A DNA stretch of 35,031 nt from a virus (Duplodnaviria; Heunggongvirae; Uroviricota; Caudoviricetes), in the IMG/VR virus record IMGVR_UViG_638341082_000010. One strand, 5' to 3'. Below the pieces are notes generated by a model. It was not told the origin of the DNA and made no database searches. It was given only the letters and a program-made list of their open reading frames with translations. Made by a program: the position numbers and the translations under genes. Below, piece by piece: positions 1 through 35,031 of the stretch; positions within the stretch are counted from its first letter, which is position 1; every line of letters starts with the position of its first letter.

Positions 1-1023
1 TTATGTGGATGAAATGTGGATGCCTCCTTTTAACGGATTAAGTGAAATTGCATCCTGGAGGAAATCAGGAGCGAGGTGCGCATAGGTCATAGTTTGCTGA
101 ATCGTGGCGTGCCCCATAATTCGCTGGAGCGTAAGTATATTTCCTCCATTAATCATAAAGTGAGCTGCAAAGGTATGGCGTAGAACATGTACAGCCTGTC
201 CCTTTGGTAGGTCTGGCTTAACACTGCGAAGCACCTTGCGATATTCCTCATAATTGACGTCAAACAAAAGGCCGGATTTCTTTGTTTTGATCTCACTAAC
301 AACCTCATCAGAGACAGGAATAATTCGAACTTTTCCGTTTTTAGTTTTGTTAAACGTCACGCGATTATTGATGATGTGTTCCGCGCGCAGATTTTTCGCT
401 TCTCCCCATCTCGCCCCAGTACTGAGACAAAGTAGCGTAATCCGCCGGGCATCACCGCTTACTGCATCCAGCAATTTGGCGATTTCTTCCGTGGTGAGGT
501 ACGTCATTTCGGGTGATTTTCGTTTCAAAGAGGGGAGGGCGCGGAGTGGATTTTCTCCGTGAAATTCCCCGGCATTTGCCAGGAGTGTAAACATTCCTCC
601 GAGATCCGACTCATCACGCCGAACAGTAGATTCTTTTACTCCTAAGGATAAACGGGAGCTTCGATAAGCTGCCATGAAACGAGCATTAATCTGGCTAACC
701 CTTGGATCATTCATTTCTTTGATGATTTTTTTCAATCTGGTTAGAACGCCGTTAGCATATGGCTTATTGCGTCCACCCAATTCCCACCATAATGGAAGCA
801 GATCTGAGAGATGACGTTGCTCTGTTGGCTTTTCAAGCCATTCCTTATCGTGCATGTGGCTGAGAACATAGCGCTCAAAGGCCACTGCATCTGCCTTTTT
901 CTTAAAAATCCGCTGAATCCGACGTCCACTTCGGCCACGCGGTCTAACATCCACTTTATACCGTCCACCATCGAGTGCCTTAATTGCCATTGGCAAGCCC
1001 TCCGGTGAAACGAGGAAAGACAT
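1..1023 (-). CDS. int: Tyrosine integrase (P2 Int-like)
   Basis: 340 aa; C-terminal catalytic motifs visible (GARWGEA, HVLRHTFA, YAHL); sits beside the repressor as in P2. Confidence 0.9.
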   Translation of the reverse strand: MSFLVSPEGLPMAIKALDGGRYKVDVRPRGRSGRRIQRIFKKKADAVAFERYVLSHMHDKEWLEKPTEQRHLSDLLPLWWELGGRNKPYANGVLTRLKKIIKEMNDPRVSQINARFMAAYRSSRLSLGVKESTVRRDESDLGGMFTLLANAGEFHGENPLRALPSLKRKSPEMTYLTTEEIAKLLDAVSGDARRITLLCLSTGARWGEAKNLRAEHIINNRVTFNKTKNGKVRIIPVSDEVVSEIKTKKSGLLFDVNYEEYRKVLRSVKPDLPKGQAVHVLRHTFAAHFMINGGNILTLQRIMGHATIQQTMTYAHLAPDFLQDAISLNPLKGGIHISST

Positions 1024-2150: not shown

Positions 2151-2438
2151 ATGACCAAAGAGCATGCACAAGGTGTATTTATCCGTTTTATTGATTTTCG
2201 CGGTGAACTGTTATTACGCGCATCCGCTATTGATGGAGTGACTCCTGCGGGTAAAAACGGAGCCGCCGAAGCCACTTACATTTATCTGAACGGCACACGG
2301 CTGCTTGTGGAACTTCCGTACCAGACCGTACGAGAAATCATTAGCGAAGCTGAAAAGGCACGTCAGGTTAATGGCGATAAACCCTATATCGAAATTATTT
2401 GTATGGATTCAGAAGCAGAAATCCAGAAGGCAGATTAA
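2151..2438 (+). CDS. Hypothetical early protein
   Basis: 95 aa from the internal ATG preceded by AGGTG. Confidence 0.5.
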   Translation: MTKEHAQGVFIRFIDFRGELLLRASAIDGVTPAGKNGAAEATYIYLNGTRLLVELPYQTVREIISEAEKARQVNGDKPYIEIICMDSEAEIQKAD

Positions 2439-2448
2439 AGGGTGTGCG

Positions 2449-2691
2449 ATGGACAAAGAATATAAAGCTCTTATCAATAAAGCACTTGAGCGTTTTTATT
2501 TTCGCCTAAACACATCAGGGGCCCAGGCAGAACACGCAGCCCATGATTCATTAGCAAGGGCAATCAGAAGCCTTTATGACGTGGCTTTTTACGCCGACGA
2601 TTTGGATGCGATTAACGAGCTTTCCGAACTCGTCTGCGCTGCAGAATGCGGTGAACGCATTGAACCGTATAAACTGGGGAATATCGTATGA
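2449..2691 (+). CDS. Hypothetical early protein
   Basis: 80 aa from ATG at 2449, tightly packed after the previous gene. Confidence 0.5.
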   Translation: MDKEYKALINKALERFYFRLNTSGAQAEHAAHDSLARAIRSLYDVAFYADDLDAINELSELVCAAECGERIEPYKLGNIV

Positions 2692-2801
2692 GCATATTTA
2701 TGTCATGGCTTATTCTGATTATTTCGGTGGCCTGCGCAATCGGGATTATGCGAATTATTAATTCAGTAAAAAAGATTGAACGCTTTTTCACTGGTGAATA
2801 A
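2688..2801 (+). CDS. Small hydrophobic peptide, 37 aa (MSIFMSWLILIISVACAIGIMRIINSVKKIERFFTGE)
   Basis: ATGA start/stop overlap with the upstream gene; single predicted transmembrane helix; below the 60-aa cutoff of the ORF track. Confidence 0.35.
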   Translation: MSIFMSWLILIISVACAIGIMRIINSVKKIERFFTGE

Positions 2802-2894
2802 CGATACAAATAAAACATCAAATTAAATAAGAAAACGTGAAAACCATCCGTATTAACGGAGGTATTCGCACACGCAAATAATGGAGATACAAAA

Positions 2895-3305
2895 ATGCAC
2901 GCAAAAGAAGAAGGTATCATCAGAGCACTGAAAGAAATTTCAAAGACAGAAAACGAAGTAGCGAAAAAAGCCATAGCAAATAATCATATGGACGTCGCAA
3001 CCCACACACTGATAGTCGCAAGAGTCACGGCCGAAGCAGCCGAAATTATCGAAAAACAGGATGCTGAACTAACGGTTCTCAGAACACAACCAGTCACCGG
3101 GCTGGATTTGTCTAACACCGGACGCCTTATTTACACAATTGGCTCGGAGCCACAGCAATACACCATTATCGCCGGATTACAGGATAAATACCTGATCACT
3201 CCTCACCCCATAAGGGAATCAGAAATTCTGACAAATCTCCGCCTGATAGAGCGCTCTCAAGTCGCATTCATTGATGACGCACAGCGCACCGTATTTAACG
3301 CATAG
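2895..3305 (+). CDS. Hypothetical early protein
   Basis: 136-aa ORF with GGAG RBS upstream. Confidence 0.55.
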   Translation: MHAKEEGIIRALKEISKTENEVAKKAIANNHMDVATHTLIVARVTAEAAEIIEKQDAELTVLRTQPVTGLDLSNTGRLIYTIGSEPQQYTIIAGLQDKYLITPHPIRESEILTNLRLIERSQVAFIDDAQRTVFNA

Positions 3306-3328
3306 GGTTACTGGACAAAGGGGGCGCA

Positions 3329-3532
3329 ATGGCAATTAAACGTTTTTCCGTCATTCGTTTCACATCCAGAGGGCGTGAATACGAAGTTGACGAACGGCTG
3401 ATTAAAACGCTCGACCGTCACCGTTCGCAACCTGACGCGCATCACATTTATCTCACTGACGACACTTACTTCTGCGCCACCAACGTGGTGCAGGTGAACC
3501 TTATCCGACAGGTACAGGAGTCACGCAGATGA
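3329..3532 (+). CDS. Hypothetical early protein
   Basis: 67-aa ORF with AAGGGGG RBS; stop overlaps the next start. Confidence 0.5.
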   Translation: MAIKRFSVIRFTSRGREYEVDERLIKTLDRHRSQPDAHHIYLTDDTYFCATNVVQVNLIRQVQESRR

Positions 3533-3774
3533 CCATTCTGGACTATATCGCCGCCAATCCGGGTTGTAGCGGTGGAGAAATCGCCGCCGCGCTGAATACC
3601 CCAACCACAGCCATTAATGCGGAGTTACGCCGACTCTGGCGCAGCGGTTCAGTCATAAGAAAAGAGCGCAAAACAGGCGGTCGCTTTTCTTACCAGATAA
3701 ACCCGATGCCGTTCGGGTGCGGCAATCCACTTACCAACATGTTAAACCAGCTACTGAAGGAAGTCAGAGCATGA
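3529..3774 (+). CDS. Small putative winged-helix DNA-binding protein
   Basis: 81 aa, translationally coupled; helix-turn-helix-like core GGEIAAALNTPTTAINAELRRL. Confidence 0.45.
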   Translation: MTILDYIAANPGCSGGEIAAALNTPTTAINAELRRLWRSGSVIRKERKTGGRFSYQINPMPFGCGNPLTNMLNQLLKEVRA

Positions 3775-31934: not shown

Positions 31935-32091
31935 AGCTTCAGCCCCTTGTATCCGTTAAATGATTCGGCAACAATCATCACCCACCACGCGCGTAATCTC
32001 ACCCCTGCGCCGTTCTCTCGCCACGGCGACAACAAAAAGCAGTAACCCCCTCCGCACGCACATGCGACCATGCCGCACAGGGAGGGAGCAG

Positions 32092-33198
32092 ATGACCGAC
32101 ACCACCATGCAATTGCTCAGTCAGGGCACAGACCCCGTAAAAATGCCGGATTTTGATATTCTCGCGGAGGGTAAAACGCTGTCAGGCGTGGCAGAGCGCC
32201 TGATGAGCCTGTCACTGACCGACAACCGGGGATTTGAGGCGGACCAGCTCACCATCACGCTGGATGATGCGGATGGTCAGTTGCAGCTACCGCCACGGGG
32301 CGCGCGCCTGACGGTTCTCATTGGCTGGAAGGGAGAACCGCTGACAGAAAAAGGCACTTACATTGTTGATGAAATCGCTCACGAAGGACCGCCGGACAGG
32401 CTGACTGTTTCAGCCAGAAGCGCAGATTTTCGGGATGAATTTAACGTTAAACGTGAGGTGTCCTGGCATGATGTGACCGTTGAGCGTGTGGTATCCGCCA
32501 TCGCTCATCGGTATGGTCTGAAACCGCAAATCAGCGAAATGCTGATGGATATCGAAATCGACCACGCCGACCAGACCGAAGAAAGCGACATGTCCTTCCT
32601 TACGCGCATGGCGGAAATGCTGGGTGCAATCACCACGGTAAAAAGCGGCAATCTGTTATTCATCATGCCAGGTGGTGGCGTGAACGCACAGGGCCAGCCG
32701 TTGCCCTCGTTCGCCATTACACGCAGCAGCGGCGATCGCCATCAGTTCCGCATTGCTGACCGCGAGGCGTATACGGGGGTACGCGCCTACTGGCTTGATC
32801 TTAATTACGGGAAAAAGAAAAAAGTCAGCGTGAAACGCCGTAAACCGCCAAAACCCAAAAAGGAGAAAAGCAGCCGTGAAGGTGATTATATGGAAGGCGC
32901 GGAAGGCAATGTGTTTGTGTTACGCAAGACTTATCAGAACGAGCAGGCAGCAAGACGCGCAGCGGCGGCAAAGTGGCAGCAACTACAACGCGGAGCCGCA
33001 TCATTCTCCATCACGCTGGCGCGTGGACGTGCAGAACTCTACCCCGAAATGCATGGCACGGTAACAGGATTTAAAAGCGAGATTGATAATCAGGACTGGA
33101 TTATTGCAAAAGCCGGGCACACCATTGATAACAGCGGCTTTACCACGCAGCTTGAGCTTGAGGCAAAAATCCCGGAATGGATAGCGGAAACAGAGTGA
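32092..33198 (+). CDS. D: Tail protein D (late control gene D family)
   Basis: 368 aa from ATG with GGGAGGGAG RBS; conserved position upstream of ogr. Confidence 0.85.
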   Translation: MTDTTMQLLSQGTDPVKMPDFDILAEGKTLSGVAERLMSLSLTDNRGFEADQLTITLDDADGQLQLPPRGARLTVLIGWKGEPLTEKGTYIVDEIAHEGPPDRLTVSARSADFRDEFNVKREVSWHDVTVERVVSAIAHRYGLKPQISEMLMDIEIDHADQTEESDMSFLTRMAEMLGAITTVKSGNLLFIMPGGGVNAQGQPLPSFAITRSSGDRHQFRIADREAYTGVRAYWLDLNYGKKKKVSVKRRKPPKPKKEKSSREGDYMEGAEGNVFVLRKTYQNEQAARRAAAAKWQQLQRGAASFSITLARGRAELYPEMHGTVTGFKSEIDNQDWIIAKAGHTIDNSGFTTQLELEAKIPEWIAETE

Positions 33199-33240
33199 GC
33201 AACTTAGAATAGCGGCAGCACCACGTTAAGGGAGGTCGCT

Positions 33241-33501
33241 ATGTTCCGTTGTCCGCTTTGTGGCGCATCTGCCCGTATCCGCACCAGTCGTCCGGAAAAT
33301 GATTCAAACACCGTGCGGCAAAAGTATTACCAGTGTAACAATCTGGAATGCGGCGTATGCTTCTCAACACTGGAAGCTTTCCATAAATTCACATCGAAAC
33401 ACGCCTCCGGCGTTCACTCATCAGAAGGTATCCCGTGGCATGAGCTGCCAGCTTCACACAGGGGAAACAATCAGATGAGTTTGCCTTTACCTCAGAATTA
33501 A
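33241..33501 (+). CDS. ogr: Ogr/Delta-family zinc-finger late transcription activator
   Basis: 86 aa; MFRCPLCG...YYQCNNLECG cysteine pattern resembles P2 Ogr. Confidence 0.85.
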   Translation: MFRCPLCGASARIRTSRPENDSNTVRQKYYQCNNLECGVCFSTLEAFHKFTSKHASGVHSSEGIPWHELPASHRGNNQMSLPLPQN

Positions 33502-33589
33502 CAGGCAGAATTGCCGGAGTAACAAAAAAGCGATAGATTACGTGCGGGTGCCTTTCGGCTGATGGTCGGAGGGAATACCCGAAGGCCAG

Positions 33590-33826
33590 ATGTGGAAAGG
33601 CCCCGGAAAACATTTCTGTTTAACCGAGGCCCTAACACTTCTTACCTTCGCAAGTAGAAGATTAGCGCCTCTCCTCTCAGGAGACAAGCGTTATGACGCA
33701 AATTCCGTTAAAAACCCTGTTACTTTGCATAACTGCGGTAGCGATAATCTGGATCCTCCACACATCACCGTGCGAGTTACGATTCAGGTTTGCTGGCACG
33801 GAAATTGCGGCATTCTTACTATGTAA
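33590..33826 (+). CDS. mok-like overlapping reading frame of a type I toxin locus
   Basis: 78-aa ORF that contains the hok-like ORF in another frame, as in hok/mok loci. Confidence 0.4.
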   Translation: MWKGPGKHFCLTEALTLLTFASRRLAPLLSGDKRYDANSVKNPVTLHNCGSDNLDPPHITVRVTIQVCWHGNCGILTM

Positions 33827-33833
33827 TAAGTAA
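33693..33833 (+). CDS. hok: Hok/Gef-family membrane toxin, 46 aa
   Basis: MTQIPLKTLLLCITAVAIIWILHTSPCELRFRFAGTEIAAFLLCNK: transmembrane helix then CE.R...G.E.AAF motif characteristic of Hok/Gef; AGGAG RBS. Confidence 0.65.
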   Translation: MTQIPLKTLLLCITAVAIIWILHTSPCELRFRFAGTEIAAFLLCNK

Positions 33834-33919
33834 GATAACCGCGACGGGGGAGTAATCCCCCGTCAATCGGTTGCTAAGGTTGGTCGAAACGGCACCCTAT
33901 CTCACAGACATGAACAACA

Positions 33920-33953
33920 AACCCGCAGCGTAAAAACTGCGGGTTTTCTTTTT
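33920..33953 (+). terminator. Intrinsic terminator (AACCCGCAG-N8-CTGCGGGTT then TTCTTTTT)
   Basis: 9-bp stem plus U-tract about 90 nt after the hok stop. Confidence 0.65.
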
Positions 33954-34000
33954 GCTGCCCTCACAAATGAGGGCACCATACATAAGCAATAGGCATAACA

Positions 34001-34035
34001 GATCGATGCAATAAATCCGATCGATAAAAACGATC
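34001..34035. promoter_or_regulatory. Cluster of three GATC sites (GATCGAT repeats) upstream of the com-like gene
   Basis: GATC at about 34001, 34019 and 34032, read from sequence. Confidence 0.55.
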
Positions 34036-34082
34036 GATTTGTTATCATATCGGCAGCAGTAACCACACAAGAGGTGCCGCAA

Positions 34083-34280
34083 ATGACGCAAAATGTACGA
34101 TGCAAAAATTGCAACAAACTACTTGCCCGCGCCTCATTTCACTACATTGAAATAAAATGTCCGCGCTGCAAAACACTTAACCAGATAACGAGAGCCATCG
34201 AGCACCCCACACACATGAGGAGTTATGACCGTGGGGATCGCAATCCAGCACCAACCAGCACATACACCGGAACACACTAA
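34083..34280 (+). CDS. com: Mu Com-like zinc-finger protein
   Basis: 65 aa from ATG with AGAGG RBS; RCKNCNKLL...HYIEIKCPRCK closely resembles Mu Com. Confidence 0.75.
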   Translation: MTQNVRCKNCNKLLARASFHYIEIKCPRCKTLNQITRAIEHPTHMRSYDRGDRNPAPTSTYTGTH

Positions 34281-35031
34281 GGTTTATCAGACTGACAATG
34301 CCACGCTCTGTCGTGGGAATGCGCTGGAAATATTGCCGCTGATTGAGCCAGAAAGTATTGATGCCTTAATCACTGACCCGCCTTACAGTTCAGGCGCGAC
34401 ACACAAGGCCGGACGCACCAACCAGGGCAGCCATGCAAAATATCTGAACGGCGAGAACCTTCACCGCTTTGATGGGTTCGCGGGTGAAAACATGGACGCC
34501 CGTTCGTGGGCTTACTGGACACAATTATGGATGGCACAGGCACACCGCGCAGTCAGGCCGGGCGGTTATGCCCTGGTATTTACTGACTGGCGACAACTAC
34601 CAGCTTTAACCGATGCGTTTCAGGCCAGTGGCTTTACATGGCGCGGCATCATTGCGTGGAACAAGGGGAGGGGGTCACGAACACCACATACCGGGTATTT
34701 CCGGCATCAGTGCGAATACATCGTCTGGGGCAGCAAAGGCCATTTAGATAAATCGCCTTCGGGACCGTTCGACGGCTGCATGACGTTCCCGGTTATCCCG
34801 TCAAAGAAAATGCACCCGACCGGAAAACCAGAAGAACTAATGGCGGAACTGGTCAGGACTGTGAATAGTGGCGGAACAGTCCTTGATCCTTTTATGGGGT
34901 CAGGGACAACGGGTGTGGCTGCACTGAAAGCAGGGCGAAAATTTATTGGTATAGAAACCAGCGATCATTATTTTGAGGTAGCAGCGCAGCGGCTTCGGGG
35001 GACTATTACCACAACCATTTCGGCTACATAA
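34225..35031 (+). CDS. DNA methyltransferase, beta-class amino-MTase (N6-adenine or N4-cytosine)
   Basis: 268 aa; DPPY catalytic motif near the N-terminus and FMGSGTT AdoMet motif near the C-terminus; start overlaps the com 3' end. Confidence 0.85.
   Translation: MTVGIAIQHQPAHTPEHTKVYQTDNATLCRGNALEILPLIEPESIDALITDPPYSSGATHKAGRTNQGSHAKYLNGENLHRFDGFAGENMDARSWAYWTQLWMAQAHRAVRPGGYALVFTDWRQLPALTDAFQASGFTWRGIIAWNKGRGSRTPHTGYFRHQCEYIVWGSKGHLDKSPSGPFDGCMTFPVIPSKKMHPTGKPEELMAELVRTVNSGGTVLDPFMGSGTTGVAALKAGRKFIGIETSDHYFEVAAQRLRGTITTTISAT

Follow-up and report, generated by a model that had tools for sequence, protein, structure and literature searches.

The 35,031-nt viral record IMGVR_UViG_638341082_000010 (Caudoviricetes; the whole of this stretch of DNA is referred to as the window) ends in a two-gene cassette, com and a beta-class DNA methyltransferase gene. 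We consider it likely that the cassette is a Mu-type module with two locks, one on transcription, set by Dam and OxyR, and one on translation of the methyltransferase, opened by Com, and that the resulting methylation protects progeny DNA from restriction. The analysis shows that the elements of the module are present, homologous to known counterparts, and conserved, gives a predicted structure for the mRNA, and places the cassette within the phage genome. From these we infer OxyR binding, promoter activity, Com dependence, the activity and specificity of the enzyme, and the timing of expression. A sigma70 promoter would drive a single bicistronic com–methyltransferase mRNA. OxyR would bind un- or hemimethylated GATC sites and occlude the −35 element, and full Dam methylation would exclude OxyR and permit transcription. 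On the mRNA, the ribosome-binding site and the start codon of the methyltransferase (AUG 34225 or, more probably, GUG 34231) would be locked in a hairpin (34205–34236), until Com from the same mRNA binds a CC-AUC-GAG loop 5' of the hairpin and opens it; the enzyme would thus be made only once Com has accumulated. The beta-class enzyme would then methylate both phage and cell DNA, by which progeny genomes could escape restriction in the next host.

The com gene (34083–34280, plus strand) begins with ATG, is preceded by a Shine–Dalgarno (SD) sequence (AGAGGTG, 34069–34075, 7 nt 5' of the ATG), and encodes a 65-amino-acid (aa) CxxC...CxxC zinc-ribbon protein (CxxC-N16-CxxC; Cys 7, 10, 27, and 30). 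The close resemblance to Mu Com proposed in the initial annotation is borne out by matches to Pfam PF10122 (Zn_ribbon_Com; E = 1.1e-11, 44.5 bits, cutoff 22.9) and to PHROG 13819 ("gpCom control of modification"; E = 2e-17), and by BLASTP alignment with Mu Com (60% identity over 42 aa of the zinc-ribbon core, E = 1e-15). The 3' end of com overlaps the open reading frame (ORF) of the methyltransferase by 56 nt on the same strand, and such an overlap between com and its partner gene is usual across Com loci.

Mu-type Com activates translation by binding RNA at a defined motif (PMC6483171; PMC3299994). By systematic evolution of ligands by exponential enrichment (SELEX) and footprinting, its target was defined as 5'-CC(N)2-3GAG-3' within a hexaloop that caps a short hairpin (Nowacka et al., PMC6483171); in Mu, this target adjoins a translation-inhibition structure, the stem of which holds the GUG start of Mom (PMC6483171). 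The window has a predicted Com-binding element at 34192–34205 (plus strand), in which CC-AUC-GAG (34195–34202) occupies the loop of a short imperfect hairpin (pairs G92–C05, G94–C03, and C95–G02) within the com codons for A-I-E-H, and the motif aligns with AUGCCUGCGAGCAU of Mu. Independently of the published motif, the pattern GCC-N2-3-GAG[CT] was recognized at the same place, on the 3' side of the zinc-finger coding sequence, at 55 of the 70 distinct Com loci compared. RefSeq/PGAP names the protein (WP_001353016.1) a "Com family DNA-binding transcriptional regulator," in keeping with which Com would act as a transcription factor on the promoter and not on the mRNA. The only point in favor of such an action is that automatic product name, and we regard the action as very improbable, given the published RNA-binding activity of Mu-type Com and the presence of the RNA motif and of a start-codon hairpin both in the window and across the family. 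Because the experimental work describes an RNA-binding translational activator, the RefSeq name is probably wrong or misleading for the Com family.

Directly abutting the Com-target motif, RNA folding predicts a translation-inhibition hairpin (34205–34236, plus strand), which comprises an outer stem (CCCCAC, 34205–34210, paired with GUGGGG, 34231–34236) and an inner stem (CAUGA, 34214–34218, paired with UUAUG, 34223–34227). This hairpin encloses an SD sequence (GAGGAG, 34217–34222), the AUG at 34225, and the in-frame GUG at 34231, and in the ensemble fold AUG 34225 and GUG 34231 each have a pairing probability of at least 0.99. The Mu counterpart is the hairpin CCCACGG/UUGUGGG around the GUG of Mom; relative to shuffled sequences, the z scores are similar (−3.0 for the window and −2.9 for Mu). 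Across 53 loci, the 45 nt that follow the motif have a mean z of −1.49, compared with −0.35 in each of two control windows (paired Wilcoxon p ~0.001). Diverged copies from E. coli and Salmonella retain the hairpin. Among lineages, the stem sequences vary and the position stays the same, so that the SD sequence or the start codon is always covered: the stems are GCAUCC/GGAUGC and GCAUCG/CGAUGC at Neisseria and Snodgrassella loci, GCGUCAC/GUGACGC in Pseudoalteromonas, CCUCCA/UGGAGG at a Mom-carrying Endobugula locus, and GAGC/GCUC in the Stenotrophomonas phage Smp131. At two Neisseria loci, a C5-methylase ORF (PF00145, ~1e-50) that had been missed by the automatic ORF call comes to light when the reading frame is opened at the AUG of the 3' arm. 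For the window, the true methyltransferase start may be GUG, as in Mu, because GUG 34231 has the better SD spacing (8 nt, compared with 2 nt for AUG 34225) and some records annotate a 266-aa version.

The RNA elements also bear on the sequence of Com itself. The residues EHPT in the Com tail are conserved, and since their codons spell GAGCACCCCAC, this conservation is at least partly an RNA constraint. In one diverged copy (L086, from E. coli EC9; com at 1638–1781), a 2-bp deletion in the hairpin loop, CACACACAUG, cuts Com to 47 aa by a frameshift and shortens the loop, and the methyltransferase ORF is intact. A 47-aa Com is consistent with published work in which the tail is dispensable for RNA binding (PMC6483171).

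The second gene (34225–35031, plus strand) encodes a beta-class N6/N4 amino-methyltransferase of 268 aa from AUG 34225, or of 266 aa from GUG 34231, and its TAA stop is the last codon of the window, as the initial annotation had stated. That annotation had also assigned the overlapping gene to a DPPY...FMGSGTT methyltransferase rather than to Mom, and this assignment holds: DPPY (residues 51–54) and FMGSGTT (222–228) stand in the beta-class order, and the protein matches PF01555 (N6_N4; E = 2.7e-33) and PHROG 67 (E = 4e-82). No NCBIfam model matches at its cutoff, and no close characterized relative was found; the nearest solved structures in the PDB are M1.HpyAVI ("DpnA"), the best match, and CcrM (~1e-20). 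Among phage relatives, the nearest are Bpm of Bordetella phage BPP-1 (53% identity) and, at 40–46%, methyltransferases from P2-like Stenotrophomonas, Ralstonia, and Burkholderia phages. From the DPPY motif, the enzyme is probably an N6-adenine methyltransferase. Relaxed specificity is possible but unsupported by the sequence: membership of the non-specific D12 group (Hia5/M.HaeV) is rejected, the enzyme not being D12, and so is membership of the M.EcoGII group, since only core motifs are held in common with the presumed M.EcoGII homologue of phage 1720a-02 (33% identity over 67 aa and 22% over 129 aa). In the literature, no functional or methylome study of an enterobacterial com–methyltransferase gene was found.

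Upstream of com lie three Dam sites, namely GATC-1 (34001–34004), at about −54 from the predicted transcription start (~34055); GATC-2 (34019–34022), 18 bp farther on and overlapping the predicted −35 hexamer; and GATC-3 (34032–34035), 13 bp after GATC-2 and within the promoter spacer. Each is part of a GATCGAT heptamer, and these (at 34001, 34019, and 34032) are the only three GATCGAT heptamers in the window. The initial annotation had compared this cluster with that of Mu, and the comparison is strengthened here, as the 18/13-bp spacing is identical to that of Mu Pmom; moreover, the alignment of Mu with the window shares flanking bases (ATAG...GATCGAw.CAATwAA..CGATCGrTAA.A..GATCGATT). Over the prophage as a whole, GATC is under-represented (84 sites, compared with ~135 expected by base composition).

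A predicted OxyR operator (33989–34034) covers the cluster in two overlapping 37-bp registers (33989–34025 and 33998–34034) and opens with a conserved ATAG box (33989–33992). When every position of the window was scored on both strands against the tetramer consensus ATAGnTnnnAnCTAT-N7-ATAGnTnnnAnCTAT (20 specified positions), the six best scores all fell on the GATC cluster (15/20 for the registers starting at 33989 and 33998, 14/20 for that at 34002); outside the cluster, scores reached 13/20 at most. The best score in the Mu fragment is also 13/20, in the same register as 33998. The match at 33998–34034 is predicted to span the −35 element and the spacer and to contain all three GATC sites; with GATC-2 in the −35 element and GATC-3 in the spacer, the predicted OxyR site thus covers −35. 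In Mu Pmom, the three GATC sites lie within an OxyR-binding region, according to secondary citation. In P22 gtr, 13-bp GATC pairs fall inside a single OxyR half-site, and OxyR fails to bind once they are methylated (PMC2909390).

The layout is conserved. The ATAG box, the 18/13 GATC triple, and the promoter element TGnTATCAT are kept in phage Chuche, in a Salmonella locus (L004), and in diverged E. coli copies (L084–L087). At two of these E. coli loci (L084 and L085), the gene and sequence just upstream of the operator are unrelated to those of the window, and the conserved block starts at ATAG. The 18/13 spacing recurs, with other bases in between, at L009, an enterobacterial locus of Mu-like type whose modification gene is a true Mom. 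In a set of 69 Com loci drawn from many genera, only enterobacterial loci show the 18/13 triple; enterics are Dam+, which fits a Dam-dependent function. Given the identity of spacing with Mu, the ranking of the OxyR matches, the conservation, and the unique GATCGAT heptamers, chance is an implausible origin for the cluster.

The operator overlies a predicted sigma70 promoter (34021–34048, plus strand), made up of a −35 hexamer (TCGATA, 34021–34026), a 16-nt spacer, and an extended −10 element (TGtTATCAT; TG at 34041–34042 and TATCAT at 34043–34048). It is the single promoter-like match in 33450–35031 (9/12 positions plus the TG), and TGnTATCAT is also kept at locus L005, described below. In the window there is no counterpart of the Mu C-activator dyad TTATgccccAATAA or of the weak Mu promoter (ACCACA/19 nt/TAAGAT), and GATC-3 is separated from the com ATG by 51 nt, compared with 78 nt in Mu. 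With the C site and weak promoter absent and a sigma70-like promoter in their place, the transcriptional logic may differ from the strictly late expression of Mu. An Ogr-dependent late promoter was considered and rejected, as no TGT-N12-ACA box occurs upstream of com; this pattern is at chance frequency in the window, and its nearest match is within com.

Because a late activator is seemingly not needed, the operator could instead act in lysogens by agn43-like phase variation, in which methylated GATC sites would give an ON state and unmethylated, OxyR-captured sites a silent one, producing heritable subpopulations with different methylomes. An operator over a promoter that looks independent of an activator, having neither a Mu C site nor an Ogr box, agrees with this, as does the likeness to agn43 of K-12, which has a spacing of 19/13 and an OxyR-consensus score of 14/20, compared with 18/13 and 15/20 in the window. 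Furthermore, a Citrobacter locus with com and a C5-cytosine methylase (L006, C. braakii ATCC 51113) keeps the 13-bp GATC pair only, in sequence near-identical to the agn43 operator, and Broadbent et al. (PMC2909390) leave undecided whether Mu mom expression is phase variable. However, the retained Com/hairpin lock suggests that, as in Mu, a costly enzyme is made in a burst; related methyltransferases of prophages (M.EcoGII; Hin1523 and Hia5) are silent in lysogens; and the agn43 operator is downstream of +1, not over −35. On balance, phase variation is a minority possibility, and we favor the two-lock module.

Several points weigh against the two-lock module. The promoter is a consensus match only, with one match found and 1.8 expected in shuffled sequence. 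The Com-target hairpin is imperfect, with an A·A mismatch, and some of the motif is paired differently in the minimum-free-energy fold. DPPY does not strictly rule out N4-cytosine specificity. A promoter that is free upon Dam methylation would be on in ordinary dam+ lysogens, which is hard to square with an anti-restriction role confined to the lytic phase, unless expression in lysogens is held low by gating through Com and the hairpin or by OxyR binding that depends on hemimethylation. Finally, in the operator of locus L005, a 31-bp deletion between GATCGAT repeats 1 and 3 has removed two GATC sites, the OxyR site, and the −35 element, and com and the methyltransferase gene are intact; at least one lineage can thus dispense with the operator. 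This locus (NZ_JBQPOM010000071.1, a 226-kb contig, ~2380–2500) has a Com 92% identical to that of the window, and its label, "Vagococcus sp. WN89Y," on an enterobacterial-type cassette is probably due to contamination or mislabeling.

As a bare cluster, the GATC triple is not statistically rare, since random placement of the 84 GATC sites of the window gives some triple within 35 bp in 23% of trials. This, together with the deletion at L005 and with non-enteric P2-like relatives such as Smp131 that have com and the methyltransferase gene without the 18/13 triple, would suit a GATC cluster that is an inherited relic with no regulatory role, transcription being constitutive or coming from elsewhere and control being left to Com and the hairpin alone. 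We consider this improbable, since the ATAG box, the GATC sites, and their spacing are kept in E. coli, Salmonella, Mu, and L009 while other bases diverge, the best OxyR-consensus matches in 35 kb fall on this site, and the triple is limited to enterobacteria, as described above.

The position of the cassette in the phage is clear. The window is a complete P2-like prophage, running from int (1–1023, minus strand) through tail genes, gpD (31960–33198), ogr (33241–33501, plus strand; Pfam Ogr_Delta, E = 5e-14), and a hok/gef toxin gene (33693–33833, plus strand; Pfam HOK_GEF, E = 2.5e-8; PHROG "MokW-like host killing") to com and the methyltransferase gene. In a 100%-identical E. coli chromosome, host raiA and bamD follow ~150 bp past the methyltransferase stop, and the free phage Chuche, which is 92% identical over the region, has the gene order ogr–hok–com–methyltransferase–integrase. 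The pair thus forms the end of the cargo in this one P2-like prophage, in the order ogr–hok–com–methyltransferase–attR, at a variable, non-essential site of the P2-like (Peduoviridae) genome, as is typical of accessory cargo. The initial annotation had suggested examining the flank for a Mu-like or second prophage end; that candidate is rejected, because the cassette is within the P2-like prophage and adjoins attR and raiA. No restriction gene adjoins the pair on either side in the E. coli chromosome or in Chuche. A restriction–modification pair is rejected accordingly, with the endonuclease gene absent on both sides, and the description of the methyltransferase as an orphan, which the initial annotation had also given, agrees with its gene neighborhood, in which raiA follows and there is no restriction gene nearby.

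Between hok and com, a terminator scan identified a strong, bidirectional hairpin resembling an intrinsic terminator (AAACCCGCAG...CTGCGGGTTT, then a T run; 33919–33946), which divides the hok transcript from the com operon and is kept in Chuche, L004, L086, and L087; with a terminator upstream of com, the com operon would have its own promoter. Both ogr and hok carry the same annotation in RefSeq and in Chuche. The hok gene is part of a hok/sok-type toxin–antitoxin locus (33546–33833) between ogr and the com cassette, in which Rfam sok matches 33546–33704 (plus strand) below threshold (45.4 bits, gathering score 59). This sub-threshold match is the sole notable one in Rfam, and no Rfam family covers the com/hairpin region. 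The hok–com interval holds variable cargo: some E. coli copies have a gene for a TM2-domain protein and others an opposite-strand gene for a 128-aa hypothetical protein (L084, 1046–1432; L085, 1047–1433; L086, 1148–1444; L087, 1140–1436), and the window has neither. The L084 copy is integrated beside flk, not raiA. In E. coli RM14723 and TUM2820 (H29 and H31), the match to 33200–35031 is split in two by an "integrase core domain-containing protein," i.e., an insertion sequence element in or near the cassette.

The cassette recurs among enterobacteria. Its regulatory DNA is present in 173 of 5,426 complete E. coli genomes (~3%), and carrier strains include CFSAN018748, RM14723, 2015C-3121, GB089, and UMNF18. 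Under nonspecific product names, the exact sequences of Com and of the methyltransferase occur on about 1,000 and at least 1,000 public contigs, respectively, of E. coli, Salmonella, Klebsiella, and E. albertii. Among phages, a "distant" blastn search with the regulatory DNA returned only Chuche and Mu-like inserts in two Shiga toxin (Stx) phages, and those inserts align to the com coding part alone.

To place the pair among other Com loci, downstream genes were called automatically at 59 of them and assigned to families by Pfam. The most frequent partners are D12/Dam-like methylases of the Hia5/Hin1523 type (PF02086; 35 loci). Beta-class N6_N4 enzymes are found at seven loci, which include those of the window, Salmonella, "Vagococcus," Cellvibrionaceae, and Pseudoalteromonas; C5-cytosine methylases at five (three by the first Pfam pass, and L012 and L021 on re-calling of ORFs); and Mom (PF25680) at only three (Mu, L009, and L057). 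The remaining, tentative calls include one D12 fragment, one aspartyl-tRNA synthetase that is probably a chance neighbor, and several genes without a Pfam match. At the C. braakii locus (L006, ~2400–3700), a Com 59% identical to that of the window precedes the C5-cytosine methylase, with the same CCCCAC/GUGGGG hairpin around GUG. Because the partners are mostly DNA-modification enzymes, Com looks like a portable gate, mainly for such enzymes, and by this survey at least four unrelated DNA-modification enzyme families are gated by Com. The partners without a Pfam match (L035, L055, L065, L067, L075, and L018; tentative automatic ORF calls) are of 307 aa in Acinetobacter and of 711–813 aa in Firmicutes metagenome-assembled genomes and Terrisporobacter, and these might be uncharacterized DNA-modification enzymes. 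In Methylophaga thiooxydans DMS010, the same com locus is found on at least 12 scaffolds (L013, L020, and L025–L034), often at scaffold ends, which suggests either an artifact of assembly or a transposable (Mu-like) prophage in multiple copies.

Taken together, these data suggest that the control of Mu mom is a portable module, comprising the OxyR/Dam operator, Com, its CC(N)2-3GAG target, and the start-codon hairpin, which is here joined to a different enzyme, phage family, and promoter. An uncharacterized orphan methyltransferase could affect the host range of the phage by restriction escape and, if expressed in lysogens, the methylome of the host. Should the enzyme methylate GATC, or adenine generally, its own operator would be methylated and the ON state locked. 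The cassette is also a simple system in which to ask whether a Dam/OxyR operator without the Mu C activator gives phase variation; if so, it would be a prophage-borne "phasevarion" run by methylation state, not by repeat slippage, in ~3% of complete E. coli genomes. No new principle is involved, and the transfer of the control region from Mu to P2 is neat rather than surprising.

Of the known systems, com–mom of Mu is the one from which the idea of a Mu-style gated operon was drawn in the initial annotation, and that idea is supported, with some refinement. The window and Mu have in common a Com protein (60% identical), a com 3' end that overlaps the modification gene, a CC(N)2-3GAG target directly 5' of a CCCAC/GUGGG-type hairpin with the start codon, and an ATAG box with three GATC sites at 18/13 bp in an OxyR operator (predicted in the window); the match between the two looks like homology. 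What the window lacks is the weak, C-dependent promoter with its C site, and Mom as the enzyme. The enzyme of the window is a beta-class S-adenosylmethionine-dependent methyltransferase (PF01555), whereas that of Mu is Mom (PF25680); the predicted OxyR site of the window lies over a sigma70-like −35 element, whereas that of Mu is upstream of the activator site; and the element itself is a P2-like phage, whereas Mu is a transposable phage.

The arrangement is less novel than was implied initially, as pairs of Com and a methyltransferase have been published or annotated in both Mu-like and P2-like phages. In Mu-like prophages of Haemophilus and Neisseria, such pairs replace mom (Hin1523 of FluMu, Hia5/M.HaeV, and Nme1821; PMC3299994), and ORF47/48 of Pseudomonas phage B3 was noted as another (Drozdz et al., 2012; PMC3299994). 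For Hin1523 and Hia5, an anti-restriction role has been proposed, and the genes are silent in lysogens (PMC3299994). As in the window, a Com homologue stands ahead of a methyltransferase in the place of mom; the Hia5/Hin1523-type enzymes differ in being D12/Dam-like (PF02086, with motif I before DPPY), not beta-class, and in their location in Mu-like prophages, and the triple-GATC operator was not seen in the Com loci of Haemophilus, Neisseria, and Acinetobacter. Closer in phage family are Burkholderia phage KS5, a P2-like phage whose overlapping genes for gp21/gp20 are annotated as encoding a "Com translational regulator" and an N-4/N-6 DNA methylase (Lynch et al., 2010; PMC3091744), and Stenotrophomonas phage Smp131, the methyltransferase of which is 46% identical to that of the window and is preceded by a CC-AC-GAG motif and an SD-covering stem. 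Both have overlapping regulator and enzyme genes, as in the window, but their cassettes lie elsewhere, between tail genes (KS5) or beside the portal gene Q (Smp131), and no 18/13 GATC/OxyR operator was found in Smp131. The KS5 and Smp131 pairs are known by annotation, with no regulatory analysis published.

The enzyme itself recalls the non-specific adenine methyltransferases M.EcoGII and M.EcoGI of E. coli prophages, which are also beta-class, prophage-borne orphans, are unexpressed in lysogens, and are harmful if constitutive (Murray et al., 2018; PMC5778455); these are larger (349–352 aa, with a large insert) and lie downstream of Q in lambdoid/Stx phages, with no com. The operator recalls the switches of agn43 (flu), which has three GATC sites inside one OxyR tetramer site (19/13 bp), and of P22 gtr, with its 13-bp GATC pairs in an OxyR half-site; in both, methylation excludes OxyR (PMC2909390). 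Several GATC sites within an OxyR site over a promoter or start, as in an agn43-type switch, are likewise predicted in the window. However, the agn43 and gtr switches act on surface structures and lack a translational gate, the operator of agn43 is just downstream of the transcription start, and phase variation is demonstrated there and is conjecture for the com cassette. Set against all of these, a P2-type pair of com and a beta-class methyltransferase gene, joined to the OxyR/Dam operator of Mu over a sigma70-like promoter, appears to be undescribed.

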